Origin: a bacterium
Lineage (GTDB): Bacteria > Patescibacteriota > Patescibacteriia > JACPHY01
Length of the DNA stretch: 64,000 nt
Reading direction: 5' to 3'
Assembly (NCBI GenBank): GCA_030646955.1
Contig: JAUSKM010000015.1
Location: 285-64,284, forward strand
Below are positions 3,226 through 60,311 of the stretch, piece after piece (positions within the stretch are counted from its first letter, which is position 1; each line of letters starts with the position of its first letter). The notes under the pieces are model-generated. The model made no database searches. It saw nothing but the letters and a program-made list of their open reading frames with translations, and was not told where the DNA came from. Position numbers and translations under genes: made by a program.

Positions 3226-5157
3226 TCACCGCTTGAGCACGGCGATGTAGGCCTCCGGGGGGAGGTCAACACGGCCGGTGGCGCGCATGGCTTTCTTGCC
3301 TTTCTTCTGCTTCTCCAGGAGCTTCTTCTTGCGCGTAACGTCGCCGCCGTAGAGACCGGCAGTGACGTCCTTGCGGAGCGGCGAGATGCGGGCGCTGGCG
3401 ACAATCTTGCCACCGATCGCCGCCTGAATGCGCACCTCAAACTGGTGGCGCGGGATCACGTCCTTGAGCCGCTCGACGATCCGCCGCCCCACCTGCTGCG
3501 CTTCGTCCTCGTACACAATTGTCGCGAGCGATTCCTCTGGTTCGTCCACAACAAAAATGTCGAGGCGCCGCACGTTCGCCTCGCGGTGCTCGGAAATTTC
3601 GTAATTCATGGACGCGTACCCCTGGGAAACACTCTTGAGCCGATCATAAAAATCCACCAGCACCTTCGCAAGCGGCAGCTCGTACTTCAGGAGCGCGCGC
3701 CGTTGCCCCTCGATGCCGCCGGCAAGGTACTCCGTGGTGCGGTAGGTGCCGCGGTACTCCTGGCAGAGCTGCATGAGCCCGCCCACGTACTGCTCTGGCG
3801 TCACGATGTCCATGCGCACCCACGGCTCCTCAATTGCCGCGATGGACGACGGGTCCGGCAGCTCCTGCGGCGAACGGATGACTTCTCGCGCGCTGCTGTC
3901 CGCTTGGTGTTGCCGGCGCACCCAGTATGCAACACTCGGCACCGTCACCACCACGTCCATGTTGTGCTCGCGGATAAGCCGCTCCCGGAACACGTCCAGG
4001 TGGAGGAGGCCCAAGAATCCGCAGCGGAACCCCACGCCCAGTGCCTGCGAATGCTCCGGCTCCGCGACAAGCGCAGCATCGTTGAGGCGTAGCTGATCAA
4101 TGGCATCACGGAGCTGTTCCGTTTCATCCGAGTTCTTGGGGAACACGCCAGCGAACACCATGGGCCGCACGTCCTTGTACCCGGGGAGCGGCGCGGTTGC
4201 CGCGTACTTCGCGCCCGTCATAGTATCGCCAACGCGCACGCTTCGGATGTCCTTGAGGCCCGTCACGATGTATCCGATCTCCCCCGGCCCCACCTCGTCC
4301 GTCGCATAGAGCTTGGGGTTAAACGATCCCACCTCGCTGGCCTCTACCACCGTACCGGTGGTGAAGAATTTGAGTTTATCACCGCGCGCAACCGATCCGT
4401 CCACCACGCGCACATACGCGATGACGCCCCGAAAATCGTCGTACACAGAATCAAAAATGAGTGCGCGCAATCTCCGATCCCCCACCTCATCTTGAGGGGG
4501 GGGCGTCCGCACGGGTGCCGGTACCCGCTCCACCACCGCGTCGAGCAACATCGCAACGCCCTCGCCCGTCTTTCCGGAGACGGCAAGAATCTCCTCACGC
4601 GCGCATCCCAACAGCTCCATGATTTCCTGCGCCGTGCGCTCAACGTCCGCCGCCGGCAGATCAATTTTGTTGATCGCCGGAATAATGACGAGGTCCTGCT
4701 CCATCGCCAAGTACAGGTTCGCAATCGTCTGCGCCTGCACACCCTGCGTCGCATCTACGAGCAGGATTGCTCCCTCCACTGCCGCAAGCGAACGCGAGAC
4801 CTCGTACGTGAAGTCCACATGCCCGGGCGTGTCGATGAGGTGGAATATGTACTCCTCCTGATGATCCCCCACCTCCCGCTCGTCTGCGTCCGCCGGAGCG
4901 CGGAGGGAGGAGGGGCGAGGGGGGGTGGGCGTCCGCATCGTTCCGCCATGCGCGCCCAGCGTCCATCGCATGCGGACTGGCGCCAGCTTGATCGTAATCC
5001 CCCGCTCCTGCTCCAGGTCCATCTGGTCCAGCGTTTGCTGCTTCATGTCCCGGCTACTCACCGTTCCCGTGAGCTCCAACATCCGGTCCGCCAGCGTGGA
5101 TTTGCCGTGGTCAATGTGGGCGATGATGCAAAAATTGCGAATGGATGATGATTCCAT
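3226..5157 (-). CDS. lepA: Elongation factor 4 (LepA)
   Basis: MESSSIRNFCIIAHIDHGKSTLADRMLE...DTPGHVDFTYEVSRSLAAVEGAILLVDA. The ORF track extends upstream to 5394 as non-coding read-through. The gene carries two in-frame GC-hairpin insertions (see repeats at 4488 and 4864). Confidence 0.9.
   Translation of the reverse strand: MESSSIRNFCIIAHIDHGKSTLADRMLELTGTVSSRDMKQQTLDQMDLEQERGITIKLAPVRMRWTLGAHGGTMRTPTPPRPSSLRAPADADEREVGDHQEEYIFHLIDTPGHVDFTYEVSRSLAAVEGAILLVDATQGVQAQTIANLYLAMEQDLVIIPAINKIDLPAADVERTAQEIMELLGCAREEILAVSGKTGEGVAMLLDAVVERVPAPVRTPPPQDEVGDRRLRALIFDSVYDDFRGVIAYVRVVDGSVARGDKLKFFTTGTVVEASEVGSFNPKLYATDEVGPGEIGYIVTGLKDIRSVRVGDTMTGAKYAATAPLPGYKDVRPMVFAGVFPKNSDETEQLRDAIDQLRLNDAALVAEPEHSQALGVGFRCGFLGLLHLDVFRERLIREHNMDVVVTVPSVAYWVRRQHQADSSAREVIRSPQELPDPSSIAAIEEPWVRMDIVTPEQYVGGLMQLCQEYRGTYRTTEYLAGGIEGQRRALLKYELPLAKVLVDFYDRLKSVSQGYASMNYEISEHREANVRRLDIFVVDEPEESLATIVYEDEAQQVGRRIVERLKDVIPRHQFEVRIQAAIGGKIVASARISPLRKDVTAGLYGGDVTRKKKLLEKQKKGKKAMRATGRVDLPPEAYIAVLKR
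4488..4514. repeat. Small GC hairpin (CCCCCACCTC...GAGGGGGGGG) inside lepA
   Basis: cccccacctcatcttgagggggggg. It encodes the extra segment APVRTPPPQDEVGD relative to the canonical LepA alignment. Confidence 0.4.
4864..4934. repeat. GC-rich hairpin element inserted in-frame in lepA
   Basis: atcccccacctcccgctcgtctgcgtccgccggagcgcggagggaggaggggcgagggggggtgggcg. It encodes an insertion of about 30 aa, GAHGGTMRTPTPPRPSSLRAPADADEREVGDHQ, between the conserved KLAPVRM and EYIFHLIDTPGHVDF segments. Confidence 0.6.
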
Positions 5158-5200
5158 ATATCGGGATGGTAGCAGCAACAATAGGAACCCGAAAATGGGA

Positions 5201-6802
5201 TCACCCTCGCGCCTCGTCTGCGCCACCAAAGGCACGGGGGACGGCGCGGAGGGCGTGACGACGGAGCGCGAGCGCAAGCGCGGTAATTTCATCGGATTTG
5301 AGGAGGATACCAACGGCAAGGTACGCCCCGAAGCCCAGGCCCCCTGCCAGGAAACCCTGCAACGCGATGCCGATGAATGTCTGTGTCCCCACAAGCGCGG
5401 CGATGCTGGGCTTCACCACCTGGATGACCACGCCCATGACGAGTGCAGCGATGAGGAATTTCCCGATGGCGATACCCGTACGCCGTCCATCCAGCCCGCC
5501 GGCGCGGCGACGCAATGCGACGAGGAGCGCGAGCGCCTGGACGATACCCGCGAGCGCCAACGCCAACGCGAGGCCCTGCGGACCAAATGTGCGACCCAGG
5601 AACCACGCAGCCGCGATGCCGAGCACATCCGCCGCCACGCTGATGACGAACGGCGTGCGCGTGTCCTCGAAGGCGTAAAACGCACGCGTCAAAAGCGGGA
5701 TGAGCATCGCAAAAAAGAGTCCAACGCCAAACGCCTCCACCGTTTCCAATGTTCGAACCGTATCCTCCCATCCAAACGCGCCAGCACCCAGGAGCACGCG
5801 GACGATCTGCGCTTTGAGTGCCAAGAGCATCACGACAGCAGGCAGCGCGAGGAGCGCGATCTGTCGAAACGTCGCAGAGAAATACTGCCGGAACTGTTCG
5901 ATGTCACCAGCAGCAACTGCGCTCGACAAGCGCGGGAATGCGGCGATGGCGAACGCGATGCCAATGAGCGCGATCGGCACATGTTGGATGTTCGCCGCAA
6001 ACGTAAACACCGCGAGCGATCCCGCGGCGAGCGTGGACGCAATGCCGGCGACGATGAGCAGCTGCACCTGCTGCGCGCCAAGCGATGCGACACGCGGGAG
6101 AAGGTTCACAAACAACAATCGCACCTCGCGATCGCGCCACGTTGGCGCCCACTGTACCCGCAGCCCCGTACGCGCCGCAGCCACCCATTGCATCGCAAGG
6201 TGCGCGGCAGCACCCAGCACCACGCCCCACGCGATTCCTACCGGGCCGAGCATCGGCGCCAGCGCGAGGACGCCGCCGATGATGCCAAGATTGTAGAGGA
6301 GCGGTGCCGCCGCAAACGCGAAGAAGCGCTCCTCTGCCTGCAATACGCTACCAATGACAGATGAGAGGCCTAGGAGTGCCGTCGCGATGAACAGGATGCG
6401 GCCAACCTGCACGGTGAGCGCAAGCTGCTCCGACGAAAACCCAGGCGCAATAGCCGCAAAGAGCGGCGTCGCCGCAAGTGCGCCAATGCTCCCACACAGC
6501 AGGAGGAGAAACGCGGCATTGGTGAACACCTGCGAGGCGAAACGATGTGCGCGGTCACGCCCACCCGCGCGCAGCCGAATAAAAATCGGCACGAACGCCG
6601 CGGAGAGCGCGGCGAGGCCAAGGAGGTTGAAGGCAAAATCCGGGATGCGGAATGCCGCGTAGTACGCGTCGAGTACCGACCCCGCACCAAACGTGGTGGC
6701 GAGGATGCGATCGCGCACGAGTCCCAGGATGCGGCTCGCAAGCGAGAGCGCTGCAATGAGCAGCGCGGAAGCGACGGTGGTTTGTCCCAAGCGCATAGGC
6801 AA
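5201..6802 (-). CDS. murJ: Lipid II flippase MurJ (MviN family)
   Basis: 533-aa polytopic membrane protein. N-terminus LGLVRDRILATTFGAGSVLDAYYAAFRIPDF is typical of MurJ. Confidence 0.85.
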   Translation of the reverse strand: MPMRLGQTTVASALLIAALSLASRILGLVRDRILATTFGAGSVLDAYYAAFRIPDFAFNLLGLAALSAAFVPIFIRLRAGGRDRAHRFASQVFTNAAFLLLLCGSIGALAATPLFAAIAPGFSSEQLALTVQVGRILFIATALLGLSSVIGSVLQAEERFFAFAAAPLLYNLGIIGGVLALAPMLGPVGIAWGVVLGAAAHLAMQWVAAARTGLRVQWAPTWRDREVRLLFVNLLPRVASLGAQQVQLLIVAGIASTLAAGSLAVFTFAANIQHVPIALIGIAFAIAAFPRLSSAVAAGDIEQFRQYFSATFRQIALLALPAVVMLLALKAQIVRVLLGAGAFGWEDTVRTLETVEAFGVGLFFAMLIPLLTRAFYAFEDTRTPFVISVAADVLGIAAAWFLGRTFGPQGLALALALAGIVQALALLVALRRRAGGLDGRRTGIAIGKFLIAALVMGVVIQVVKPSIAALVGTQTFIGIALQGFLAGGLGFGAYLAVGILLKSDEITALALALRRHALRAVPRAFGGADEARG

Positions 6803-6821
6803 CTCCCATTGTACCGCACAA

Positions 6822-6849
6822 CACGCATCCGGCCGAAGCCGGATGCGTG
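6822..6849. terminator. Stem-loop (11-bp stem, UUCG-type tetraloop) between hpf and murJ; possible attenuator/terminator
   Basis: acgcatccggc-ttcg-gccggatgcgt on the minus strand, downstream of the hpf stop. There is no clear U-tract. Confidence 0.3.
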
Positions 6850-6885
6850 TTTGATGTATTGAGCCAGAAGCTAGCAGCTCGCAGC

Positions 6886-7260: not shown

Positions 7261-7422
7261 AGGATAGGCACTCATTACTACAGCGCGGGCCAGCCGTTTC
7301 TTTCATTTCCGCCGCCCGCGTCGCATGGACAACATACCCCGCCTGTGGAAAAACTGCAAGGAGGCCCCAAGATGCCAAAAATGGGGCGGTTCTGCGATGC
7401 CGATGATGCGGGAGGTACTTGC

Positions 7423-7815: not shown

Positions 7816-7840
7816 ACTTTGACAATAAAATTGGTGCGTG

Positions 7841-7876
7841 TGAGATTGCTTCGCATGCTCGCAATGACAATACTTA
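7841..7876. repeat. MITE-like palindromic element (GTGAGATTGCTTCGC...CTCGCAATGACA)
   Basis: gtgagattgcttcgcatgctcgcaatgacaata. Same module as 9917..9947. Confidence 0.6.
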
Positions 7877-9414: not shown

Positions 9415-9867
9415 TCAGTGTGCCTTCGGGTACGCGCAGTTTACCATCCACTGCACCCCGAACCGATCCCGAACACTCCCGTAGTAGTCACCCCATGGCT
9501 GGTCTGCAATATCCATCTCCACCGTGCCGCCGTCTGCAAGCGCATGGAAGATGCGATCCGCCTCCTCCTTGCTGTCGGGATGAATGGAAATGTACGCGTT
9601 ATTTCCCTGCACCAACTTCTGCCCAAGCGACGGCAGCGTGTCCGAAGCCATGAGCTTATCGTCGCCAACTGGAAGGCAAATGTGCATCATCCCGTTCTCC
9701 TCCTCTTTGGGAATGTGTACGCCTTCCATCGGCATGTCCTTGAACCGCACCCTGGAGCTGAACTCCCCGCCAAAGATGGAACGGTAAAACGTGAACGCCT
9801 CCTCTGCATTCCCGGCAAAGTTGAGATACGTGTTGAGTTTTATATTCTCCATTTTTCCATCTGTCAT
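9415..9867 (-). CDS. VOC-superfamily protein, PhnB-like (3-demethylubiquinone-9 3-methyltransferase-like domain)
   Basis: MTDGKMENIKLNTYLNFAGNAEEAFTFYRSIFGGEF...MHICLPVGDDKLMASD...DRFGVQWMVN matches PhnB/glyoxalase-like proteins. The start codon overlaps the first bases of the repeat element. Confidence 0.6.
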   Translation of the reverse strand: MTDGKMENIKLNTYLNFAGNAEEAFTFYRSIFGGEFSSRVRFKDMPMEGVHIPKEEENGMMHICLPVGDDKLMASDTLPSLGQKLVQGNNAYISIHPDSKEEADRIFHALADGGTVEMDIADQPWGDYYGSVRDRFGVQWMVNCAYPKAH

Positions 9868-9947
9868 TTCGAACGCAGCGAGAAATCTCACACGATCCAA
9901 TAACTGCCGACACGCGAGATTGCTTCGCGGACTCGCAATGACAGTAC
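9864..9947. repeat. MITE-like palindromic elements (two modules)
   Basis: gtcatttcgaacgcagcgagaaatctcacacg ... gcgagattgcttcgcggactcgcaatgacag. Confidence 0.65.
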
Positions 9948-14368: not shown

Positions 14369-16171
14369 CTACTCCATAATGGGCGCGGCTGCGGTGCCTC
14401 GTGCCGGTTCGCTCGCTGCGATGACGCGGGAAGAAGCGAACACCTCCAGGGCGGCGTCAACGGTGGTGTCGCCGGTGGCGGGGCGGCAGGCGCGGTCGAG
14501 CTCTTCAAAGTGCTCCACCGCAATCGCGACGGGATCCAGGTGGAGGGGCGTGCCGACGATGCGTGCGATGGCGCTGGTGAGCGGCTCTATGATGCCGGGC
14601 TGCCGCACTTTCTCCGCGTGGAGCTTGTAGCGGAAGCCGATGGTGAGCGTCCCGTCTGCAATGCGTTGCGGGCGACCGCCTTCCAGGAGGTACGGGATGG
14701 AGCGGTTGACGTCCGCGAGATCGCGGATGATGTGGTGCCATTGTTGCTGGACTTTCGAGAGCGCCTCGGTGGCGCTCTGGATGACGGTGGATGTTGGAAG
14801 TTGCTCCCTCCTCCCGGCGGAAGGGGGAGGAATAAAACGCACCCCCTCTGACTCCCCCTCTTGAAGAGGGGGAGGAACCGGATCGGATGTATCTGTTACC
14901 GTCGTTGGGAGTTTGATGCTTGCAGGGGTACGAGCGCGCGAGGCGTGTTGGGGGGTACGGGCTGCACCGCCGGTGGTGGCGGGTGGAGCATCGTCGTCAT
15001 TGCTCCGCGATGCGTCTCGCTGAGACGAGGCGAGCTGCGCGGGATTCATTTTGCCTGGTGATGCGCTCGCTGCGGGCGCTGCGGGAACGAATGGGGAGCG
15101 CGCGAGGAGCGTAAGGACGGCAACCTCGAGGAGGAAGAACGGACGGTCTGCACGACCGATGCGATCCAGGAGTTCCGTGAACATGCGAAGCGCGAACACC
15201 TGTGCCGTCGCAACGGCACCTTGCTGGGCGGCAGCGCGTGCGGCGCTGCGCAGCTCGTTGATGATGTCGCGACAAAACGCATCCGCATCGCATCCCTCGG
15301 CTGATGCAGCATCGAGCGTGGCCAGGGCCAATGCGGTGTCGCCGGCACCAACCGCGCGAAGCAGCGTCTGGACATGCACCATGTTTGATTGCGGGAGCAC
15401 GAGCGCGGCAACATCGGCCGTCACTCGCTTCCCGCCCACCGCCATGAGCTGCCCCAACAGGGATTCTGCGTCACGCACGGAGCCGTCTGCCGCGCGGACT
15501 ACCTGCGCGAGCACCTCGTCATCCACGGCAACATCCTCTACCCCTGCAAGCATCCGGAGCCGCTCCGTGAGCGTCCCATCCCCCACGCGCCGGAACGTAA
15601 AATGCTGGCACCGTGACGTGATCGTCTCCGGCACCTTCTGCATTTCCGTTGTCGCAAGGATGAAGTGGACGTGCTCTGGCGGCTCCTCCAGCGTCTTGAG
15701 GAGCGCATTAAAGGACGCCGTCGAGAGCATGTGCACCTCGTCAATGATGTACACCTTCTTTGCTGCAACTGCGGGGGCGATACGCACCGCCTCGATGATG
15801 TACTCACGCACCTTCTCCACCTGCGTGTTGGATGCCGCATCAATCTCCACGACATCCATGCAACGTCCTGCGGTAATTTCCTCGCACCGGATGCAGGCGT
15901 TACAAGGCACGGGAAGTGTTTGCTTCGACCGGTGCTTCGCGCGAGTTTCTTCGTCGCTCCGCTCCTCGGAATGACGAGGAGCGAGGCAATTCACCGCCTT
16001 CGCCAGGAGCCGCGCGGTGGTGGTCTTTCCAACGCCGCGCGGACCGGAGAAAAGGTACGCATGCGCAACACGACCCGCCGCGATAGCCGCGACGAGCGTG
16101 CGCGTGACATGCTCCTGCCCCACGACGTCCTCAAACGTCTGCGGGCGATGCTTACGATACAGTACGGGCAT
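14369..16171 (-). CDS. dnaX: DNA polymerase III subunit gamma/tau
   Basis: MPVLYRKHRPQTFEDVVGQEHV...FSGPRGVGKTTTARLLAKAVNC...EIDAASNTQVE. Long A/P-rich C-terminal region. Contains two in-frame repeat insertions (15950 and 14803). Confidence 0.9.
   Translation of the reverse strand: MPVLYRKHRPQTFEDVVGQEHVTRTLVAAIAAGRVAHAYLFSGPRGVGKTTTARLLAKAVNCLAPRHSEERSDEETRAKHRSKQTLPVPCNACIRCEEITAGRCMDVVEIDAASNTQVEKVREYIIEAVRIAPAVAAKKVYIIDEVHMLSTASFNALLKTLEEPPEHVHFILATTEMQKVPETITSRCQHFTFRRVGDGTLTERLRMLAGVEDVAVDDEVLAQVVRAADGSVRDAESLLGQLMAVGGKRVTADVAALVLPQSNMVHVQTLLRAVGAGDTALALATLDAASAEGCDADAFCRDIINELRSAARAAAQQGAVATAQVFALRMFTELLDRIGRADRPFFLLEVAVLTLLARSPFVPAAPAASASPGKMNPAQLASSQRDASRSNDDDAPPATTGGAARTPQHASRARTPASIKLPTTVTDTSDPVPPPLQEGESEGVRFIPPPSAGRREQLPTSTVIQSATEALSKVQQQWHHIIRDLADVNRSIPYLLEGGRPQRIADGTLTIGFRYKLHAEKVRQPGIIEPLTSAIARIVGTPLHLDPVAIAVEHFEELDRACRPATGDTTVDAALEVFASSRVIAASEPARGTAAAPIME
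14803..14878. repeat. Pair of GC-rich hairpins inside dnaX linker region
   Basis: ctccctcctcccggcggaagggggagg and ccccctcttgaagagggggagg. They encode ...DPVPPPLQEGESEGVRFIPPPSAGRRE.... Confidence 0.55.
15950..15992. repeat. MITE-like element module inserted in-frame in dnaX AAA+ domain
   Basis: ttcgtcgctccgctcctcggaatgacgaggagcgaggcaattc. It encodes APRHSEERSDEETRAKHRS between the conserved AKAVNC and PCNACIRC segments (E. coli has NCETGITATPCGVCDNC). Confidence 0.6.
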
Positions 16172-23927: not shown

Positions 23928-24176
23928 TCCTAGCTGCTCCACGCGAGATCCCTGGACGATCCTCGGAATGACGAGGAAAGGAAACTCTGTATGACGGGAG
24001 ATTAAAAGGGGGACCTCTGCAAAAGTTGTGTTATTGCGAGCCGAACCCGTGAAGCGTGGCAATCCCGGCGTTAGGTTGACCGAGATTGCGGAGCCTGTCC
24101 CGAGTACGCGATGGATCCGCGTGTGTGACTCCTCACCATGACACCGTAGGGTTTTTTGGAGGTCTCAAGGGACAAT

Positions 24177-24802: not shown

Positions 24803-24966
24803 AGCCGGAATTGCCACGTCGAGGACTCCTCGCAATGACAATACCGGTGTCATTGCGAGTCCGCGAAGCAATCCCGGCCATGTGCAGCACTGTGCTGCGT
24901 CGCCATCGCAAGAGTCCTGCTATGGCCGGGATTGCTTCGTCGCTTCGCTCCTCGCAATGACAACGT
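24803..24966. repeat. Cluster of at least three MITE-like modules (GTCATTGCGAG...GCGAAGCAATCCCGGCCAT and inverses)
   Basis: ccggaattgccacgtcgaggactcctcgcaatgaca / gtcattgcgagtccgcgaagcaatcccggccat / atggccgggattgcttcgtcgcttcgctcctcgcaatgacaacg, lying between the membrane-protein gene and the dnaJ stop. Confidence 0.65.
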
Positions 24967-26140: not shown

Positions 26141-26189
26141 ACCATCGCTCATCACCGTAGCATGCTGCTGCGCGATGGACAATCATTTC

Positions 26190-26312
26190 CCCTCCCTCTC
26201 CGCTTCCAGGGGAGCGGTGGTGCGATACCGCGCCACCGCACAGTCATACATGGCCACCTCTCCCCCTCTAGCTCCCCCTCCCCCCATGAGTACGTGCGGG
26301 GAGGGGGAGGAC
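26190..26312. repeat. Composite GC-rich hairpin element (about 120 bp), intergenic dnaK/dnaJ
   Basis: cctccctctccgcttccaggggagcgg...catggccacctctccccctctagctccccctcccccatgagtacgtgcggggagggggagg. Near-identical to 45800-45878 and, inverted, to 60161-60240. Confidence 0.65.
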
Positions 26313-26579
26313 AAGAACATCGGAGTCGCTGGAGACACTTTTCGCATCCGCCACAAATGGAAGCGCCAGCGCGATACCAAGCATCGCGAGGATCAACACC
26401 TTCGTACGACGTTGCATACAAAACTGCGGAAAATAAAAAAGCCGTCCGGCACAACGGCACAGGCGCGGCGTGCCTATACACTGTTGATGGTATACCCCCC
26501 CACAACACTGTAAAGGGTACGTCACGCACACCAGCGGAGCCGTTTCCGGCTCCGCTGGTGTCGCGTTATGCACTGCGCG

Positions 26580-28427: not shown

Positions 28428-28495
28428 AGTTTTCTTGTGTGACTTCACCTACCCCGTCTTATCATTGCACGTGAAAATCTGAAGGCCTCCATCGT

Positions 28496-29778: not shown

Positions 29779-29858
29779 CTTTGCGAGTCCGTGAGGGCGC
29801 AGCAATCTCTCTGCCTGATTGGCCGGGATTACCACGTCGCGGACTCCTCGCAATGACA
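29779..29858. repeat. MITE-like modules in hrcA promoter region
   Basis: cctttgcgagtccgtgagggcgcagcaatctc (degenerate) + ctgattggccgggattaccacgtcgcggactcctcgcaatgaca. Confidence 0.55.
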
Positions 29859-41000: not shown

Positions 41001-42851
41001 AACGTACCGGCCAGATTGTTTATCCTTGATCGCATACCGAATGTCGTCCGCGTTCCCGCTGCCAGCACCAAACGCAATGACCGCGCTCGATCGCGTCACA
41101 TCTGATGCGGTCGCTGCTCCCGGCACGACGGCAAGCGTCACCGCACAGGGATACGAATCGGAAACTGGCGAGATCTTCGTGCCGCTCAACGCGACAACGC
41201 GCCGGCCGCAGTACTCGGTGTCCGGCGCGAGCGCACGTTCCTCCACGAATGTTGCCGCGGGATCGTCCGTCCGCGCCAGCTCCTTCCCATCCGCGTCACG
41301 AATCGCAAACCCCGATGCCGCACCCCCGCTATTCGCAAATGGCCATCGGATGCTCGTGGCGGCGGGCACCGGCGTTGCAATCGTTGGCGCCCCGATGGTG
41401 TCATCTACCGTGTACGCAATACGCAACGCGGTGAGGCGCGGATCCGCCTCGCCGTTCGTTGAAATGAGCGTTGCGCGCCACCGCAGCGATGAACCCGTTA
41501 CCGTGAACGTCCATACCGTCCCGGGCGTGACCGGACCCTCCCACCGTGCGGCACCATCCGCTGCGCTCACCTCGTAGGTGATTGCCGCGCCTGCCGGCAC
41601 GGTCGCCGTGGGCGTGAGCGTCGCGGTAAGGATGCGATGCGGAGTGTCATCAACGGGGTTCGCGGTCAACGCGATACCAGGGGATGCGAGGCCGGACATC
41701 AGGACGTTCGCGCCGTCCGCCCGTCCCGCAATGACGCTCCCGTGCGCGGGGTATGTTGGCGCAATGCCAAACGCGGACGGCGCACTGCCAACCCATCCGA
41801 GGGCAAGCGCGGTGGCAGTCCCGCCCTCCACGCGGGCAACGCCGCCACTCCTCCCAACCAGGAGCTGCCCGCCGGGGCCGTATGCAATCGCGCTGGCGTC
41901 CTCGCTGCGATACGCGATACTCCACCCAGCGCCGCCGTCCGTTGTCTCGTACACGCCATCAAGGAACAGTGCGGCAACGCGCCCCGTACTGCTCGCGGCA
42001 AGCGCGGTCGCATACGGCACGGAGATGCCAGCCGGATTGCGCAGCGTCCACGTGGTACCAGCGTCCACGGAACGGTACAGGCCATCGCGCAATGTCGAAA
42101 GGAAGACCGTATGGTTCGTCTGGTACGCAGGATCCACCGCAACGGCGCGGATGTCACCGTTCACGCGCACTGCATCAGACACGCCGGAGGAAATATCGAA
42201 CCATGATACGCCGCTATCTTGGCTTCGCAGCACGCGATCGAACGCCGCGACAAATACCGTGCGGTCTGTCGCGTACGCCGGCGAGAATGCGATACCAAAT
42301 CCATTCACGCTCCCGTCTACCTGCAGCCACGTCACACCGCCATCAATCGTACGCCAAAGGCCGCTCCCGTTTGTCATGGCAAACGCGATCCCATCGCCGG
42401 AGAATGTTGGGGAAACCGCAACCGCAACCGCCTCGCTGCCCGTCGCAAGCATGCGCAGCCACGTTGATCCTCCGTCCGTGGTGCGATACACGCCGTCGCT
42501 TGCAGCGATGAATGCCGTACGACTTGCGGCGTACTCTGGCGTATACGCGACACCGCTGACGCGGCGGCCATCAAACGCGGCGGCGGTCACCCAGACATTC
42601 CCGTTGTCAACCGCGCGACGCAGACGTACGTCCCCTGCTGCACTGTCCCAAGACGCACTCCAACCCGAAGCGAGCGCAGCGGGCACCGAGGAAAATTCCT
42701 CGACGTACACGCGCTCTGTTGCCGCATCAATTTTGGTGACGACGGCACCCGCAAGAACGAGAAGGAGCGCGGCGACTCCAAAGCCAAGCGCATGGTGACG
42801 CGGGAACAATGCAGCCATAGGAACAACAAACAGCCGAGCACGCAGCTCCAT
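38010..42851 (-). CDS. Giant cell-surface protein (>1600 aa): signal/TM anchor, BNR/Asp-box beta-propeller, Ig/FN3-like domains, Pro-rich linker, DNDGD Cys/Asp motif, C-terminal TM helices with two CarboxypepD_reg-like domains
   Basis: Asp-box repeats TTDGGSTW, TIDGGVTW, SQDSGVSW, SVDAGTTW, TTDGGAGW. Linker PPPDTAPPQQPVPPQEAPPAEP. CADGMDNDGDALLDYPADPDC. RVVATEVTDHLGRYNF and LLETAATDRYGRYQFLAGKSVYYV (CarboxypepD_reg-like). The track ORF extends to 43010; start set at MELRARLFVV. Confidence 0.65.
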   Translation of the reverse strand: MELRARLFVVPMAALFPRHHALGFGVAALLLVLAGAVVTKIDAATERVYVEEFSSVPAALASGWSASWDSAAGDVRLRRAVDNGNVWVTAAAFDGRRVSGVAYTPEYAASRTAFIAASDGVYRTTDGGSTWLRMLATGSEAVAVAVSPTFSGDGIAFAMTNGSGLWRTIDGGVTWLQVDGSVNGFGIAFSPAYATDRTVFVAAFDRVLRSQDSGVSWFDISSGVSDAVRVNGDIRAVAVDPAYQTNHTVFLSTLRDGLYRSVDAGTTWTLRNPAGISVPYATALAASSTGRVAALFLDGVYETTDGGAGWSIAYRSEDASAIAYGPGGQLLVGRSGGVARVEGGTATALALGWVGSAPSAFGIAPTYPAHGSVIAGRADGANVLMSGLASPGIALTANPVDDTPHRILTATLTPTATVPAGAAITYEVSAADGAARWEGPVTPGTVWTFTVTGSSLRWRATLISTNGEADPRLTALRIAYTVDDTIGAPTIATPVPAATSIRWPFANSGGAASGFAIRDADGKELARTDDPAATFVEERALAPDTEYCGRRVVALSGTKISPVSDSYPCAVTLAVVPGAATASDVTRSSAVIAFGAGSGNADDIRYAIKDKQSGRYVAADGLFGTPDAVWRTFAEWERGRVLVIGLEPDHTYAFCAEARNHVGVPSACSATTIVSTTVGSDRGDASAQVQTTLASPDVRTDDRIPVVVRVAHAGTGIVRNLVVSIPIPAGAVPMPGTLVVNGVRASDAGDADAADVGATAPGVATFRLATLGIGATAVFGIDFRTTAAAGASLTVAPTMAYVPLADVAPRTVALAPLTFSVIGPLAPPPDTAPPQQPVPPQEAPPAEPVGAPLTVTPQPTPPPQQPGAPPVVPIPDVAAPGTSAAPGTASPAPGVTRANAATMFALLAPVDGAVLPAGDLVIRGAASSDASVTVSLDDRTHWNLTAAADQSFSLTIRNVSEGSHRISVTTSGQSTAAQVRMVSPPLRDLTLTAPIAGSATNAQTVVVSGRGPSETMVRIALDGTPIASVETDALGGFTALLPGIVAEGAHEVRGDAVVAGGLTLTAAAPFVVDRTPPGTPEVREVRTTKQGIAASRADAFDVLIQLAGIIPAASAGDVDAILITIGGESATFTHRVTSVAWEFRTTLALPPGGSTIRVAARDSAGNVSPLPQVLPFAIAPAACADGMDNDGDALLDYPADPDCASAFDRTEETEGIAARTATVVAEATTATAKAVVSATQTTAKATAKAAEKTAVAVQERVLDNPAVETTTERVVAPAVVVAVATNTATAVHGFQLLAYAQYLVGFLLSPSRLFSRRKRTAWGTVYGALSKRPVDLATVRLLDVATGRVVATEVTDHLGRYNFAVKQAGSYRLDVRHPQYAYPSTRLAGRREDGDFLDCTYGEPFAVPEGGGFVIKSIPLDAKAERTMTLDKHVLRNHYGRIISGAVSDVGLVLSIASFAISPRPLIGAVLGINLLFYVLFRRLAIRARAVKSWGAIRDVVSKHPLHLAVVRLFDIEFGKLLETAATDRYGRYQFLAGKSVYYVTAQKGGYDPARSSTLDMRKREGIVGVDLALHPSVHTGALRDAGTTAPQDMTVSPGIAEAPAAAVSREEP

Positions 42852-43002
42852 TGCCGATGCGTGCGCGAACGGCTCACGGAACAATCTTTTGTTAGTATAC
42901 CACGCAAATTTCTCTTGCGCCCACAGGGTACTGGGCGGTACAATGGCAATGTGCATGCGTGACACTGCACGGGGCACGCTCCCGCGCACCACGACTCCAT
43001 CC

Positions 43003-43758
43003 ATGTTCAATCATCAGGATTTTTTCACACTCGAGCGCCGTGCAAAGCAGCAACGCGTTGCCGCGATTGCAGGCAGCGCGCTCGCCGCGATCCTGCTCGT
43101 GACCTTCGCAACCGCGACCGACGCGTCCCGGGCTGTGGATAGCGCATCGCTCGCGCTGGTGTCCGCGGATTGCGCGCCGGTCGTACGCGGCCGCACCATC
43201 CACGTCGCCTGGGAGACCACCGTCGCAGCGGATGAAAATTCCGTCATGGTTGGATCGGACGACATGTTCGGCACCACCGTCGCCGCAACGCCGGGGACGC
43301 GCCACGCAGCAGTCATCGCAGACCTCCCCAGCGGCGCGACCGTCCACTATCGCGTCACATCGCGACGTACTGCCACGGAGGAGACCGCCGCATCCGGTAC
43401 CTGCGTGGTCACGGTGGATGGCCTCGACACCGCCGCGCCACGCTTCACCGATGTCATTGTGGACAGTGTTGTCACCGATGCGGCCGCGGTCCACTTCGCA
43501 ACCAACGAACCCGCCGCGCTCCTCGTTACCGTGACATCCTTTGATGCAGACGGCGCCATCGTCACCGCATCGGAGACCACCGCCACCCAGGATATCGTGT
43601 CGCCTCCCGCCCACCGCATCGTCCTCTCCGGCCTCACCCCCGGCACGCGCTACACCGTCCGCGCAGACGCCATCGACAACGCTGGCAACTCCACCACCTT
43701 GACACCCCCCATCGAATTCCGTACGCTGCATGTGCCCGCCCCCGTAGCTCAGTGGTAG
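43003..43758 (+). CDS. Membrane-anchored protein with two FN3-like (purple acid phosphatase N-terminal-like) domains
   Basis: MFNHQDFFTLERRAKQQRVAAIAGSALAAILLVTFA TM helix. IHVAWETTVAADENSVMVGSD...TVHYRVTS beta-sandwich repeats. The 3' end, including the stop, overlaps tRNA-Lys by 21 nt. Confidence 0.45.
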   Translation: MFNHQDFFTLERRAKQQRVAAIAGSALAAILLVTFATATDASRAVDSASLALVSADCAPVVRGRTIHVAWETTVAADENSVMVGSDDMFGTTVAATPGTRHAAVIADLPSGATVHYRVTSRRTATEETAASGTCVVTVDGLDTAAPRFTDVIVDSVVTDAAAVHFATNEPAALLVTVTSFDADGAIVTASETTATQDIVSPPAHRIVLSGLTPGTRYTVRADAIDNAGNSTTLTPPIEFRTLHVPAPVAQW

Positions 43759-43884: not shown

Positions 43885-44952
43885 TCACTGCGCTGCTTGC
43901 ATGACCACGCGCGCAAGCGTGGCGGCGGCGTTGTCGGGAAACATGGTGGCGATGGAACGACCGAGTTTGGCGCGACGGTTGGCATCCTCGAGAAGCGCAT
44001 GGATGCGTTGTGTGAAGACGCCGGGCGCGACGAGGGCCCGCGAATTCCAAACCTCCGCAGCACCGCGCTCGTTGAGTTGCTGCGCGTTGTCTTCCTGGTG
44101 AGTGGATGGCATGGGCACCAGCACCGTCGGTTTACCCAGGCACCCCAGCTCCGCGATCGTCCCCATGCCCGCACGACTCACCACAAGATCCGCAGCAGCG
44201 AGCGCGGGAATCATATCGTCGGCGAGAAACTCAAATTGTCGATAGGATCCGGCCCACTCCCCCTTCCCAGCGGGAGTGGGGGGAACATTGCCCTGCTTCC
44301 CTTTCCCCGTCACATGAATCACGTCGGCAATCGCCGTCAGCTCGGGCAATGCGGCCCAGACAAGGTGGTTGAGCGCCATTGCGCCGGTGCCACCGCCAAG
44401 AATGAGGAGTACGTGTCGATTTCCGGAGAATCCAAAATGCCGCTGTGCTTCGCGCACATCCGCCACGCACGCATCGCGCACGGCGGCACGCACCGGCACG
44501 CCGATGCCCTCAGCGCCAAATGTCGCCGTCCGCGCGGACGAAAACCGCGCCACAAGCGTGTTGGCCAATGATGGACGCGCGTCCAGTTGGTGGATGACGA
44601 TCGGGATGCGCAGCACGCGCGCCGCAAGCATCACCGGCACCTGCACGTATGACCCCGCGCCCACCACCGTATCTGGCCGCTCCCGACGCAGAAACGCAAG
44701 TGCGCGCACGAACGCCCATGCAATTGCAAACGCATCCACGATATTCCGCCCATCCAGGTACCGTCGCAGCTTGCCTGCCGGAAACGCGATGAACCGGATC
44801 CCGTCGCGCTCCACCAACACCCGCTCCGGCCCCCGCCGCGTCCCAATCCACATCATCACCGCCCGCGGCCGCACATGCCGAATCTCCTCCGCGACAGCCA
44901 AGAGCGGGGTCACCGATCCCAATGTTCCGCCGCCGGTGAAGAGGATGGTCAT
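43885..44952 (-). CDS. murG: UDP-N-acetylglucosamine--N-acetylmuramyl-(pentapeptide) pyrophosphoryl-undecaprenol N-acetylglucosamine transferase
   Basis: MTILFTGGGTLGSVTPLLAV...GT28 N- and C-terminal domains. A small GC hairpin (44256-44286) lies within a variable loop. Confidence 0.85.
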   Translation of the reverse strand: MTILFTGGGTLGSVTPLLAVAEEIRHVRPRAVMMWIGTRRGPERVLVERDGIRFIAFPAGKLRRYLDGRNIVDAFAIAWAFVRALAFLRRERPDTVVGAGSYVQVPVMLAARVLRIPIVIHQLDARPSLANTLVARFSSARTATFGAEGIGVPVRAAVRDACVADVREAQRHFGFSGNRHVLLILGGGTGAMALNHLVWAALPELTAIADVIHVTGKGKQGNVPPTPAGKGEWAGSYRQFEFLADDMIPALAAADLVVSRAGMGTIAELGCLGKPTVLVPMPSTHQEDNAQQLNERGAAEVWNSRALVAPGVFTQRIHALLEDANRRAKLGRSIATMFPDNAAATLARVVMQAAQ

Positions 44953-45656: not shown

Positions 45657-45728
45657 AGTGCGCTCCTTGATGCTCGGTGCTCGGAATCTGGGCTCTTCGC
45701 CCTTTTCTGTCGCTCATGCTCTGTTTGA

Positions 45729-45878
45729 TCCCCTCCCTCCCCGCGCGTACTCGCGGGGGGAGGGAGGGTTAGGGAGGGAGAGGTGGGACGGAATGGCAAC
45801 ATGGTACAGCCCATCCATAGCCACCTCTCCCCCTCCTGCTCCCCCTCTCCCCACGAGTACGTGCGGGGAGGGGGAGGG
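45729..45878. repeat. Composite GC-rich hairpin element (two hairpins plus conserved spacer)
   Basis: cccctccctccccgcgcgtactcgcggggggagggaggg ... cagcccatccatagccacctctccccctcctgctccccctctccccacgagtacgtgcggggagggggagg. Paralogous to 26250-26312 and 60161-60240 (inverted). Confidence 0.65.
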
Positions 45879-45885
45879 TAAGGAG

Positions 45886-47022
45886 CTAGCGCCGATGCCG
45901 TGCCGCCGTGCCGCGCGTCCGGCTAAGGTTGAGCACGATACCAGCCGCACCCAGCGAGACCGCCAACGCGGTGCCGCCAGAGGAGACGAACGGCAGCGGC
46001 AAGCCCGTGAGCGGGAGCATGCCGACCATCGCGCCAATGTTCACGACGGACTGCACGCCCCACCACGCAGCGATGCCGACAAGCACGAGGCGGTCAAACT
46101 CATCTGTCGCATCCATGGCATTGCGCAGCACGCGCGCAATGACGTACGCAATCAGCGCGAGAAACGCGAGCGAGAAGATGAAACCGATTTCCTCGGCGAC
46201 AATCGCGAAGATGGAGTCCGAGATGACCTCCGGGAGGAACGCAAACTTCTGCCGCGAGTGCCCCAGGCCAACGCCAAACCATCCGCCCGATCCTACAGCG
46301 AGGAGCGCCTGGTTTACCTGATACCCGATGCCCTGGGGATCTAGCTCCGGGTGCAGGAACGCGGTGAGCCGCGCGACGCGGTACGGCGCGGCCGCGATGA
46401 GCGCAGTGAGCGCCGCGATGCCGCCCAACGCGAGGAGGCCGAGGTGGCGCAACTGCATCCCCCCCACGAACGCCATCGCCACGCCAATCGCCGCGATAAT
46501 CAGCATCGTACCGAGGTCTGGTTGGAGCCCGATGATGCCCAGTACGCCACCAAGAACGCCGAGGAACGGCAGGAATCCCCTCGCCCACGCCTTCGGATGG
46601 AACCACAACGGACGCCGCACCGTTGCCCACGACGCGAGCGCGAGGATGAGTCCAACTTTTGCAAGCTCTGCGGGCTGGAACGTCACGAAACCGATATCGA
46701 GCCAGCTCTGCGCCCCACCGCGCGTCACGCCGAGGCCCGGAATGAGCACCGCAATGAGGAGCACCACACTCCCTGCGAGCGCCCAGAGCCCGCACCGCTC
46801 CAGAACAGGCCGCCGCAGCCGCGCGGCGAGCACGAGGAGGACCGCGCCCGGGAGCACGCCGGACCAGAGCTGATGGACCAAGTAGTACGACCGCGAGCCG
46901 TACCGTTCGTACGCGAGCGGCGCAGAGACGGACGAGAGAAAAATGAGCCCCAGTGCCACGAGCAGCGCGACCGCAGCAAAGAACCGCGTGTCCGTCTCCT
47001 GGAGGAATCGCGGCATGCGCAT
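45886..47022 (-). CDS. ftsW: Peptidoglycan glycosyltransferase FtsW (SEDS family)
   Basis: 378-aa polytopic membrane protein with SEDS motifs (...GDTGAM... family). Position in the cluster next to mraY and murG. Confidence 0.85.
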   Translation of the reverse strand: MRMPRFLQETDTRFFAAVALLVALGLIFLSSVSAPLAYERYGSRSYYLVHQLWSGVLPGAVLLVLAARLRRPVLERCGLWALAGSVVLLIAVLIPGLGVTRGGAQSWLDIGFVTFQPAELAKVGLILALASWATVRRPLWFHPKAWARGFLPFLGVLGGVLGIIGLQPDLGTMLIIAAIGVAMAFVGGMQLRHLGLLALGGIAALTALIAAAPYRVARLTAFLHPELDPQGIGYQVNQALLAVGSGGWFGVGLGHSRQKFAFLPEVISDSIFAIVAEEIGFIFSLAFLALIAYVIARVLRNAMDATDEFDRLVLVGIAAWWGVQSVVNIGAMVGMLPLTGLPLPFVSSGGTALAVSLGAAGIVLNLSRTRGTAARHRR

Positions 47023-48087: not shown

Positions 48088-48139
48088 CACCTTCGAGCGA
48101 TACTTCACTTCCGTCATTTCGAGCGCAGCGAGAAATCTC
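48088..48139. repeat. MITE-like element module
   Basis: gtcaccttcgagcgatacttcacttccgtcatttcgagcgcagcgagaaatctcacacg. Confidence 0.6.
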
Positions 48140-48183
48140 ACACGCAATACTCTATCGAACACGATACGGTTGACATGTACTGC

Positions 48184-48729
48184 TTACGAATGTTTCTCAA
48201 CCCCCACATCATGTGAGATTCCTCGGCCGACCTCGGAATGACGAGCAGAAGCATACCCCACCCCATTCATATTCCAGAGCAGCACGGTACCCACAAGCGC
48301 GGCGAATGCGAGGAGTACTGCGGCAGCGAGGAGGAACACAGATGCCGTGGCGGGCGCAGGCGCGTTGCGGGGCGTGAGACCAAATGCGAGCGCAATGTTG
48401 AATGCGATGAACGCCGAGCCCGTGCGAGCGATGCGCGCGAGATCATGCCATGAACCAAAGGCATCGATCCCAAACGTGGTAGTGTAATGCGTCACGAGCG
48501 ATGCCGCGTCCGGCACATTTGGCACCGCGAGCGCCGCAATCCATGCACCCGCGAGCAGTGCACCGGCCGCGACGGCCATCCAGCGCGTTTGCGAATTCGC
48601 GAGCAGTGGATGCGAAAACGCGCACACGCGCCGCACGCATGCACGCTGCACCCGCCCAACTGCCGTCCATAGCTCCCCCTCGCTCCGGGATGGAGCATCC
48701 GGGGAGATGCGGTCATCCATATGCCTCAT
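48184..48729 (-). CDS. Hypothetical membrane protein
   Basis: [11 protein letters not shown]...[19 protein letters not shown]... with about four hydrophobic helices. Start placed so as not to overlap rpmA. The C-terminal tail is supplied by the repeat element. Confidence 0.4.
48211..48243. repeat. MITE-like element module forming the 3' end (last codons + stop) of the membrane-protein gene 48184..48729
   Basis: gtgagattcctcggccgacctcggaatgacgag. It is translated as ...[11 protein letters not shown]. Confidence 0.6.
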
Positions 48730-55697: not shown

Positions 55698-56600
55698 TCA
55701 CCGATGACCGAGGTACTCCGCAAGCGCCTGCTCCCATCCGCGCAAGGGTGGGAGCTTTGTCGTGCGGAGTACCGAGTGCGTGGGGCGTCTGGCAGCGCGC
55801 GGAAACTGCGACGCGGAGACGGGAACTAGCGTCCCACGCCACCCAGCGCACGTGAGCGCCTCCTGCGCAAAACGGTACCAGGTACACGCCCCGTCGTTCG
55901 TGCGATGATAGATGCCGCTCTCCGTAGTGCGCGCCACCAGATCCCGGGTTGCTTGCGCGAGGTCTGGCGCATACGTTGGCGATGCCCGCTCATCATCCAC
56001 CACTTCCAACCGATCGCTCGCCGCCGCTCGCTCGATAATCACGTCCACGAACGAACGCTTTCCGCCTGCCGACTGCGCCGCTGTACCAAAGAGCCGCGAG
56101 AGCCGGATGATGTGCCACTGCCATCCTGGATGCGCAGCCGCAACACGCTGCACCTCCTGCTCGCCCAGGAACTTTGACCGTCCATAGGCGGAGCAAGGAT
56201 CCGGTATCGCATCCTCGGCATATCCCGCTCCTATCCCCCCTCCCGCTGGGAGGGGGGGAAGGGGGGGGAGGTCCTGCAGCGCTCCAAACACATAATCCGT
56301 CGAATAGTGCACGAACGCCGCTCCAACAGCAGCGGCTGCATCTGCCAAATGCCCAACCGCGTATCCGTTCACCGCATCGGCAACGGCTTGCTCCTCCTCT
56401 GCGCGGTCCACCGCATTATACGCCGCCGCGTTGATGAGGATCTCCGGTGCAGCCGCCGCGATACGCGCCCGCACCTGCACCGCATTGGTGATGTCGAGAT
56501 TACTGCGATCCCACGCGATCACCTCGCAATCAGAAAACGCTCGGACGAGTGCGTGTCCGAGCATCCCCCTTGCACCCACAATGCAGACGCGCATACTCAT
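55698..56600 (-). CDS. rfbD: dTDP-4-dehydrorhamnose reductase
   Basis: MRVCIVGARGMLGHAL...HYSTDYVF...YGRSK(F)LGE. Contains a GC-hairpin insertion (LPPLPPLPAGGGIG). Confidence 0.85.
   Translation of the reverse strand: MSMRVCIVGARGMLGHALVRAFSDCEVIAWDRSNLDITNAVQVRARIAAAAPEILINAAAYNAVDRAEEEQAVADAVNGYAVGHLADAAAAVGAAFVHYSTDYVFGALQDLPPLPPLPAGGGIGAGYAEDAIPDPCSAYGRSKFLGEQEVQRVAAAHPGWQWHIIRLSRLFGTAAQSAGGKRSFVDVIIERAAASDRLEVVDDERASPTYAPDLAQATRDLVARTTESGIYHRTNDGACTWYRFAQEALTCAGWRGTLVPVSASQFPRAARRPTHSVLRTTKLPPLRGWEQALAEYLGHR
56233..56272. repeat. GC-rich hairpin inserted in-frame in rfbD
   Basis: tatcccccctcccgctgggagggggggaagggggggg. It adds about 14 aa relative to the RmlD alignment (E. coli PGTGDIPWQETDATSPLNVYG). 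Confidence 0.55.
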
Positions 56601-57355: not shown

Positions 57356-57392
57356 AGAAAGATACCGTAGCACGCCCGGGCGCGCGACCCAA

Positions 57393-58220: not shown

Positions 58221-58233
58221 ATCTTGAGCACGC

Positions 58234-60071: not shown

Positions 60072-60160
60072 ACCGTCTCCATTCTCGCACACGAACGGCG
60101 CCAAAGCAACTCCTCAAAAAAGTAGGTTCTTCCGGCTTTCGTGTCGCCGAGTACGCTTCT

Positions 60161-60240
60161 TATCCTCCCCCTCCCCGCACGTACTCGTGGGGGGAGGGGG
60201 AGCGAGAGGGGGAGGGGTGGCTATGGATGGGCTGTGTGAT
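60161..60240. repeat. Composite GC-rich hairpin element, inverted copy of 45800-45878
   Basis: cttatcctccccctccccgcacgtactcgtggggggagggggagcgagagggggaggggtggctatggatgggctg. Confidence 0.65.
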
Positions 60241-60311
60241 CGTGCGATGCAGATGGGGCGACAACCGACAGGAAAGCCGGAAGAACCAAAAAAGTACGAC
60301 ATCGCGCCGCA

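Follow-up and report, generated by a model that had tools for sequence, protein, structure and literature searches.

Repeats variously called BoxC, potential intrastrand triplex (PIT) and TM elements have been known since the 1990s and have been treated as intergenic; to our knowledge, their role and the manner in which they spread have yet to be explained. Here we describe a family of GC-rich hairpin repeats in a 64,000-nt stretch of one contig (JAUSKM010000015.1 of assembly GCA_030646955.1; hereafter the window, to which all copy counts refer). The host is affiliated with Candidatus Uhrbacteria, the next relatives of the window's LepA (3226-5157, minus strand). Seven of the 13 copies found lie in frame inside genes, namely lepA (two copies), dnaX (two copies), cysS, murG and rfbD. 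We consider it probable, at roughly 0.8, that these repeats are dispersed, DNA-level copies of the BoxC/PIT/TM class that were amplified in this Uhrbacteria lineage and, within genes, filtered by selection.

The class is described by Holder et al. (2015, NAR 43:10126, PMC4666352) and the predecessors cited there, and takes in BoxC of E. coli, the PIT elements (Hoyne et al. 2000, as cited in that paper) and the TM/TMECO intrastrand triplex motifs. TMECO follows the pattern 5'-CCCTCNCCC N3-6 GGGNGAGGG N3 GGGNGAGGG, a class II purine motif, in which the second loop is TTA (type A) or CCG (type B) and inverted pairs of A with B are frequent; the ITxF search criteria applied there admit loops of 1-6 nt between blocks. 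It numbers 3,610 copies in 262 proteobacterial genomes, cyanobacteria are rich in G/C-rich motifs, and single-stranded TMECO forms a stable triplex in vitro, as judged by circular dichroism (CD) and nuclear magnetic resonance (NMR). The motifs are tied to local sequence instability and block polymerases in vitro; they showed neither promoter nor terminator activity, and the genes beside them belong to no particular functional class. E. coli MG1655 carries 23 copies per genome, described as 'always intergenic', and neither 'intragenic' nor 'in-frame' occurs in the text of PMC4666352. Literature searches with the repeat sequence strings or the peptide KGELEGV returned no reports, and nothing relevant was found on palindromic or in-frame repeats of the candidate phyla radiation (CPR)/Patescibacteria. 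As far as the searchable literature shows, motifs of this class in frame in essential genes are new.

In the window, stems of 8 bp or longer whose 5' arm is rich in C/T and whose 3' arm is rich in G/A occur at 12 loci, as against 0-1 in 20 Markov-1 simulations, while stems of the opposite polarity occur at only two loci, both between adjacent elements. Addition of a looser copy in lepA (4858-4962) brings the total to 13, where an initial annotation of the stretch, made from the letters alone, had counted at least 11; its hairpins are all present at the places it gave. The string CCCCTCCCC occurs six times versus 0.5 expected. A relaxed scan (stem of at least 7 bp), which returned 31 loci versus 8-20 in simulations, was too noisy and was dropped. 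On a rough open reading frame (ORF) map, by which approximately 91% of the window is coding, seven copies fall inside ORFs and six between genes, giving an intergenic density per base approximately 9-fold above that of coding DNA. The copies are as follows.

532-572, minus strand: three-block motif (pyrimidine arm, loop GTT, purine arm, ATA, mirror purine arm), 9 triplets, second loop 3 nt; intergenic, from the RNase H-like gene (609-1118, minus strand) to the next minus-strand gene
4479-4503, no strand assigned: two-arm hairpin CCCCCACCTC ATCTT GAGGGGGGGG; lepA, in frame, part of VRTPPPQDEVGD
4858-4962, plus strand: degenerate C-arm/G-arm hairpin with a second G-rich tract (G-quadruplex type, 4905-4929); the 105-nt lepA insert
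14804-14831, minus strand: two-arm hairpin; dnaX linker, in frame, IPPPSAGRRE
14839-14874, minus strand: canonical three-block motif CTCCCCCTCT TCA AGAGGGGGAG TCA GAGGGGGTG, 10 triplets; dnaX linker, in frame, peptide PPPLQEGESEGV
21676-21715, plus strand: three-block motif, 11 triplets; antisense strand of cysS, in frame (NPTPPSPPFQREGGEQ)
26188-26217, no strand assigned: weak two-arm C/G hairpin; intergenic, between dnaJ and dnaK, family membership uncertain
26245-26317, minus strand: long-loop three-block motif, loop GCACGTACTCAT, partial 3' tail, 12 triplets; dnaJ/dnaK intergenic
44253-44287, minus strand: degenerate copy; murG, in frame (NVPPTPAGKGEWAG), variable loop GKGK...Y
45728-45787, plus strand: long-loop three-block motif, second loop TTA, 12 triplets; intergenic, left half of an inverted pair
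45793-45886, minus strand: long-loop three-block motif with conserved tail (CTATGGATGGGCTGT); intergenic, right half of the inverted pair, abutting the ftsW stop codon
45728-45886: the inverted pair as a whole, flanked by the DNA-alkylation-repair gene and ftsW; predicted folding energy -57.5 kcal/mol, z = -8.9
56234-56271, plus strand: three-block motif, 10 triplets; antisense strand of rfbD, in frame (LPPLPPLPAGGGIG)
60162-60248, plus strand: long-loop three-block motif with conserved tail, 14 triplets; spacer between the GT2 glycosyltransferase gene and the upstream gene

Copies are related to one another well beyond a shared composition. The segments 45793-45886 and 60155-60248 match at 87% over 94 nt in inverted orientation, and 26245-26317 matches 60157-60229 at 92% identity, in agreement with the initial annotation's unit of approximately 90 nt shared in both orientations. 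Such kinship joins coding and intergenic copies as well: the cysS copy matches the murG copy at 86% over 35 nt, inverted, and 545-572 matches the dnaX hairpin 14804-14831 at 89% identity. Units measure 33-90 nt, with arms of the CTCCCCCTCCCC and C-run types, and orientation is unbiased (6:6 overall). The exact long-loop core CCCTCCCCGCRCGTACTCRYGGGG had no match in collections of genome contigs and metagenome contigs, from which the source genome is itself absent. Near-identity that includes non-repetitive loops and tails shows amplification within genomes, and supports a dispersed repeat at the DNA level rather than ordinary low-complexity coding sequence. Predicted hairpin stabilities range from -10 to -22 kcal/mol (ViennaRNA, hairpins only), the best-folding single copy being 60162-60248 (-22.5 kcal/mol, z = -4.9). 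Short copies fold weakly beyond their shuffles (z = -1.2 to -2.1), because shuffled C-run/G-run sequences pair too, and we therefore rely on locus counts and covariation.

The covariation concerns a third arm, which the initial annotation missed. The full unit reads, on one strand, as a C/T arm, a loop, a complementary G/A arm, 3 nt, and a mirror-image G/A(T) arm. An ITxF-like scan found class II motifs of 9-14 triplets with at most one mismatch in 8 of the 13 copies, and none in 20 simulations. These strict motifs divide evenly between the strands, with 21676-21715 (cysS), 45731-45783, 56234-56271 (rfbD) and 60165-60219 on the plus strand, and 45824-45876, 26257-26309, 14839-14874 (dnaX) and 532-569 on the minus strand, which amounts to approximately one strict copy per 8 kb. 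Three strict and four degenerate copies reside in ORFs. In all eight strict copies the second loop is exactly 3 nt. The first loop varies, from 3-5 nt in dnaX, cysS and rfbD, to 8 nt in 532-572, to 10-14 nt in the four long-type copies, whose extra bases form a 4-bp inner stem and which end in a conserved tail of approximately 20 nt. Only the degenerate copies are plain hairpins, and units decay to two-arm remnants.

An antiparallel purine-motif triple helix admits three triplets, G·G-C, A·A-T and T·A-T. The third arm was compared with this rule in 110 distinct C/T-first perfect hairpins with 47 arm sequences, drawn from the window and from loci retrieved from other genomes of many phyla and excluding hairpins that overlap the scan pattern CTCCCCC N7-26 GGGGGAG NNN GAGGGGGWG. 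In mirror register with a 3-nt spacer, an A of the arm faces A (0.33) or T (0.39), a sum of 0.72, and a G faces G (0.80); at other spacers from 0 to 6 and in direct-repeat register, the corresponding values are 0.25-0.44 for A+T and 0.46-0.65 for G. At most one non-triplet position was seen in 65 of the 110 hairpins. Watson-Crick pairing cannot explain the third arm, because a mirror copy corresponds to the pyrimidine arm complemented but not reversed. Read from base identities, the pattern thus follows the rule for an antiparallel purine-motif (class II) intramolecular triplex, a structure that the repeats may adopt in the cell. Since purine-motif triplexes do not form in RNA (PMC4666352, introduction), we infer that the structure that matters is one in single-stranded DNA.

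All five G-quadruplex motifs of the window's plus strand (four runs of at least 3 G, 1-7 nt apart; 4905-4929, 21695-21716, 45755-45787, 56248-56268 and 60189-60217) lie inside elements, which for minus-strand genes places them on the template strand. They are a by-product of two G-rich arms and are not present in every copy. The G-quadruplex was rejected as the organising principle, because the third arm obeys the mirror rule at its A and T positions, something a quadruplex would not predict.

With the third arm in hand, the relationship to the published class becomes clear. The window repeats share with BoxC/PIT/TM elements the three blocks on one strand, the 3-nt second loop of TTA and CCG types, the multiplicity of copies without strand bias or a linked transposase, and a copy number that differs greatly between relatives; the pair at 45728-45886 reprises the inverted pairs of E. 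coli TMECO. They depart from TMECO in their arms, which are of the CTCCCCCTCCCC and C-run types and not CCCTCNCCC, and in the four copies that combine a 10-14-nt first loop, a 4-bp inner stem and a conserved tail of about 20 nt. They also differ in having a Patescibacteria host at approximately one strict copy per 8 kb, versus 23 per E. coli MG1655 genome, and in occurring in frame in essential genes, whereas E. coli TMECO is always intergenic. The literal TMECO pattern has no match in the window and 16 in the retrieved loci, two of them inside lepA of an Uhrbacterium (L005, GCA_001791555.1). The window family is a local variant of the BoxC/PIT/TM class and not a new family, and the earlier impression that it looks distinct has to be given up in view of the three-block architecture.

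The intragenic copies were compared with orthologues, using as reference relative GCA_030647005.1 (loci L001 and L002), which shares synteny from dnaK to lepA and has a LepA 77-83% identical to that of the window. In lepA, the 35 codons (105 nt) that separate RMRW from EY..HLIDTPGHVDF in the window are missing from the relative, whose gene is also six codons (18 nt) shorter after VERVP. The initial annotation had correctly placed an insert before DTPGHVDF but put it at about 30 residues, and the second site adds 6 aa to the 35. The two lepA copies have both termini (GATCCCCCACCTC ... GGGGGCGTCCGCA) in common, from which the short copy looks like an internal deletion of the long one. Rather than carrying an equivalent sequence without hairpin symmetry, the nearest relative is without the lepA and cysS inserts altogether. 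Across Uhrbacteria, LepA ranges from 593 to 673 aa owing to inserts at three loops. In lepA of GCA_043805865.1 (locus L123, 3190-3300), the loop that bears the 105-nt insert in the window carries an AT-rich palindrome (AAATCCGAAATCCGAAA...TTTCGGATTTCG), which encodes IRNPKSEIRNKFEVRNSN...FDIRASDL and is unrelated to the window repeats. These observations fit a view of the LepA loops as permissive sites that collect whatever palindromic DNA the genome carries.

In the case of cysS, all 16 other Uhrbacteria and Patescibacteria sequences aligned show a TPPGVK-like sequence at the position of SNPTPPSPPFQREGGEQRK in the window. In the DNA, 57 nt stand in place of 18 nt for a net gain of 13 aa, so that the insertion claimed by the initial annotation is real but smaller than its figure of about 18 aa. 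Solved CysS structures (best match E = 2.6e-95 by sequence search) are 13-16 residues shorter at the insert point. An AlphaFold model of the window CysS has a mean predicted local distance difference test score (pLDDT) of 90.6 and renders the insert as coil, residues 202-206 scoring below 50; the model thus places the insert in a loop predicted to be disordered. RfbD gains 14 residues relative to solved homologues (E = 4.4e-38), exactly at the hairpin and as first estimated. The murG segment, at 17 aa versus 8-15 aa in Patescibacteria relatives (2-9 extra), lies in a variable loop and shows no net insertion relative to E. coli MurG (solved-structure match, E = 1.3e-26). The case for an insertion is weaker here. 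Both dnaX hairpins lie in a variable linker. The one at 14804-14831 is absent from the relative, while for that at 14839-14874 the relative carries a hairpin at the corresponding place, so that this copy predates the split.

Over the syntenic DNA, the relative has one hairpin in approximately 25 kb and the window eight in the corresponding lepA-to-dnaK stretch (seven clear copies and the weak 26188-26217), a difference that, together with the empty sites, shows lineage-specific gain. Because such sites lie in highly conserved genes and exist in filled and empty form, they allow insertions to be dated and junctions to be mapped.

What is conserved among these copies is the DNA and not the peptide, because copies use different frames and strands. 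To illustrate, the core shared by rfbD and cysS is read as CCA GCG GGA in one and CAG CGG GAG in the other, and murG uses the other strand. The short intragenic types have few or no stop codons in most frames. As the initial annotation held, every intragenic copy keeps its frame, with the host ORF preserved in 7 of 7 cases. The retention of frame and freedom from stops in all seven make it probable that the inserts are translated, the predicted peptides including TPPSPPFQR and LPPLPPLPAGGGIGAGYAEDAIPDPCSAYGR. Intron-like, spliced inserts were considered and rejected, since removal at the RNA level would not require all intragenic copies to be in frame and stop-free.

The motif is widespread. 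A scan with the CTCCCCC N7-26 GGGGGAG NNN GAGGGGGWG pattern, taking one genome per species, found at least 117 loci, versus approximately two expected by chance under a uniform-composition estimate. The matches listed come from Uhrbacteria, Andersenbacteria, Saccharibacteria, Buchananbacteria, Doudnabacteria and many cyanobacteria, as well as Alcanivorax, Planctomycetes, Chloroflexi, Prevotellaceae and others, and their consensus is 33 nt long (CTCCCCCTTGCCAAGGGGGAGTTAGAGGGGGTG). Isolate genomes with the motif class include Alcanivorax hongdengensis, Nostoc sp. KVJ20, Cyanothece sp. BG0011 and Vibrio maritimus. Among the matches listed, 36 of 123 lie within ORFs that extend 60 codons or more to either side. 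In-frame hosts confirmed by Pfam are PheT (two copies), RsmA/KsgA, RecJ, UvrC, HisF, asparagine synthase B, an Elp3-like radical-SAM protein, a GH38 mannosidase, a PD-(D/E)XK nuclease and a Wzy_C membrane protein; the Pfam-confirmed intragenic hosts derive from Patescibacteria, Nitrospirae, Prevotellaceae and cyanobacteria. If the margin is set at 45 codons, 18 of 33 Patescibacteria matches listed are intragenic, versus 4 of 31 from cyanobacteria, at similar G+C (0.49 and 0.47, respectively). This higher intragenic share in Patescibacteria is preliminary, being drawn from a small, pattern-selected sample.

The layout of a G/A arm followed by a second G-rich tract is seen in other Uhrbacteria as well. 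In GCA_043805865.1 (locus L004), cysS carries three in-frame hairpins, one of them approximately 93% identical to an intergenic copy at the same locus, and a long-loop copy has the GAGTACG loop of the window's long type. In L005 (G+C 0.48), copies of the CCCTCACC / CCTCTCCC / GGGAGAGG / GGGTGAGGG type are in frame in lepA, murJ and recJ.

Two further settings of the motif were seen in passing. In Leptolyngbya and Nostoc, it is embedded in a conserved unit of approximately 100 nt that no Rfam family covers (loci L007, L008, L011, L013, L015, L056, L067, L070, L100, L102, L103, L110 and L115), with a second triplex-type hairpin upstream (TCCCCCCTT..AAGGGGGGA CTA AGGGGGGTA) and a tail downstream (GACTTGTGTGTACACCGTAG). 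In a Bacteroidetes metagenome-assembled genome (MAG; locus L092, 1480-5385), an ORF of 1302 aa resembling methylmalonyl-CoA mutase/MeaB contains several triplex-type inserts (LPLSKGELEGV, TPYQGGVGGGF and TPLAPPFKGGEP) and, judging by eye from the translation, an apparent inserted endonuclease-like segment (RKFRRQH...LDFYC...VDG).

The course of events we envisage is the following. Single-stranded DNA would fold into the hairpin, and the third arm would bind the purine arm. The repeat would have multiplied in this Uhrbacteria lineage, most plausibly by routes that act on single-stranded or repairing DNA, such as template switching, gene conversion between copies or a putative trans-acting enzyme; spread probably takes place during replication or repair, or through such an enzyme. 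Selection would then decide which copies persist. Inside a gene, a copy would be kept if the net change in length is a multiple of three, if the frame used is free of stops (made likely by the C/T and G/A arms) and if the site is a permissive surface loop, and it would be read through as a peptide rich in Pro, Ser and Leu and then in Gly, Glu and Arg.

Several observations weigh against amplification of a triplex-class repeat. In cysS, 57 nt have taken the place of 18 nt, so that the site is not a clean insertion, and its third arm partly overlaps the ancestral Thr-Pro-Pro codons, where some de novo growth may have occurred locally. Five copies have no recognisable third arm, the 10-14-nt first loop of the four long copies exceeds the published criterion of 1-6 nt, and published work found no triplex signal in vivo (PMC4666352). 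As regards movement, no target-site duplication was seen at the lepA and cysS junctions or at the aligned ends of the long copies, nor was there a terminal tag at the hairpin foot or a linked transposase in the window, and the published motifs have no association with transposons, phages or plasmids (PMC4666352). The last points bear equally on a different mechanism, in which REP- or MITE-like (miniature inverted-repeat transposable element) hairpins are moved by an HUH (Y1) transposase of the RAYT or IS200/IS605 kind and the third arm is incidental. The hairpins themselves, some in REPIN-like inverted pairs, and the sharply different copy number of related genomes would suit it, as would the Y1_Tnp gene (PF01797, IS200/RAYT-like; locus L002, 1-159) upstream of dnaK in the nearest relative, GCA_030647005.1, where the window has grpE-hrcA. 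The relative's partial Y1 protein, however, has no match in the window by tblastn, and the gene is only a lead as a candidate hairpin-mobilising enzyme. No GTAG or CGTC tag marks the hairpin foot, orientation is unbiased (four strict copies on each strand), the published class is not associated with transposons, and nothing in a plain REP model would make the third arm covary by the triplex rule. We judge transposase-driven movement to be quite unlikely.

Nor is it likely that the repeats are functional cis elements, kept for a DNA or RNA structure that serves in replication or transcription pausing, mutagenesis or recombination, mRNA stabilisation or the slowing of ribosomes at domain boundaries, with protein loops as a by-product. 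Conservation of the design across phyla, the confinement of all five plus-strand G-quadruplex-type motifs to elements, hairpins stable at -10 to -22 kcal/mol, and the published link to genomic instability and in-vitro polymerase blocks (PMC4666352) speak for such roles. Yet position and orientation relative to genes are inconsistent, published tests detected neither promoter or terminator activity nor a class of neighbouring gene (PMC4666352), orthologues work without the inserts, and copies decay into two-arm remnants. Were the inserts instead ordinary Pro/Gly-rich low-complexity linkers under protein selection, with hairpin symmetry a coincidence of GC composition, their location in variable loops and linkers would be expected, as would the varying length of the murG and dnaX regions in all relatives and the ready folding of shuffled C-run/G-run sequences, which leaves short copies at z of only -1.2 to -2.1. 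It would not be expected that the same DNA occurs between genes, that copies differ in reading frame and strand, that 12 loci are found versus 0-1, that closest orthologues lack the inserts, or that a mirror third arm, meaningless at the protein level, is present; the explanation is already largely refuted and highly improbable. Metagenome assembly or amplification artefacts come to mind given the MAG source and the difficulty of sequencing GC-rich palindromes, but none of the seven intragenic copies disrupts its long ORF, an orthologue of one copy turns up in a relative whose genome was assembled independently, and the motif class exists in isolate genomes and in E. coli, all of which makes an artefact exceedingly improbable.

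Amplification of BoxC/PIT/TM-class repeats in one lineage might be part of something larger. It is conceivable, although on present evidence doubtful, that triplex repeats form an actively propagating class across bacteria that routinely colonises coding sequence, especially in the compact genomes of Patescibacteria. If so, they would quite generally supply essential proteins with new surface loops and would place non-B DNA obstacles (triplex, hairpin and G-quadruplex) within essential genes, affecting replication, mutation and protein evolution. Sequences able to form these structures do reside, and are presumably translated, in essential genes of minimal genomes. For annotation, the repeats also account for many odd inserts rich in Pro and Gly, and for differences in length, among Patescibacteria proteins.

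The remainder of the window provides context. It has a G+C of approximately 0.62, a GC skew that is negative throughout, and nearly all genes on the minus strand; genes assigned by Pfam encode RecJ, MurJ, HrcA-GrpE-DnaK-DnaJ, FtsW, the DNA-alkylation-repair protein, the GT2 glycosyltransferase and the RNase H-like protein. Against Rfam, the window matched tRNA families and no others, and no match covered the repeats in 15 loci. An ORF of 1666 aa (38010-43010, minus strand) lies upstream of the murG/ftsW cell-wall genes. Another, at 26568-28442 on the plus strand, runs antisense to dnaK and matches PF10712 (NAD-GH) at E = 5e-127; it is a shadow ORF and no real gene, the minus-strand ORF being a clear Hsp70. 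The window also harbours a second repeat family, unrelated to the first, which combines the terminus GTCATT[G/C/T]CGAG with an ATTGC...GCAAT hairpin and gives 26 matches (at most one mismatch) versus 8.7 expected. It is found at 1069-1266, 7830-7869, 9862-9943, 15965-15975, 23962-23972, 24804-24961, 29822-29858 and 48113-48242, and one in-frame dnaX copy encodes RHSEERSDEETRAK, which is absent from the relative's DnaX.

Beyond the BoxC/PIT/TM class, four described systems invite comparison. REP/REPIN-RAYT systems (Bertels and Rainey 2011, PMC3116915; Di Nocera et al. 2013, PMC3733652) likewise consist of short GC-rich hairpins and inverted doublets amplified within a genome, but these are extragenic, whereas the window family has a third, non-Watson-Crick arm and copies within coding sequence and lacks a GTAG or CGTC tag, and the window encodes no RAYT. 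Intragenic MITEs, such as ERIC and the Coxiella QMITE (PMC10969869, PMC5896051), show that inverted-repeat DNA can be tolerated in ORFs and translated there; they belong to a different sequence family, and their terminal inverted repeats and target-site duplications were not seen in the window. Coding palindromes of Nematomorpha mitochondria (PMC6649704) are also inverted repeats tolerated within ORFs, but unlike the window repeats they are long and perfect, with both arms encoding conserved protein. A parallel in behaviour, as the initial annotation recognised, is that of the Rickettsia palindromic elements (RPEs) of approximately 100-150 bp (Ogata et al. 2000, 2002, as reviewed in PMC10969869). 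RPEs are palindromic repeats in a reduced host genome, found between genes and, in frame, at fold-compatible, permissive sites of unrelated conserved housekeeping genes. By the same description, they encode a conserved peptide in one frame per family and are confined to one genus, whereas the window copies use several frames and both orientations and triplex motifs are spread across phyla. The window units, at 33-90 nt, GC-rich and with a mirror third arm, differ from RPEs also in build, as far as a comparison by description goes. The repeats described here would thus represent a second, independent and phylogenetically broad case, after the Rickettsia RPEs, of selfish or neutral palindromic DNA creating protein loops.

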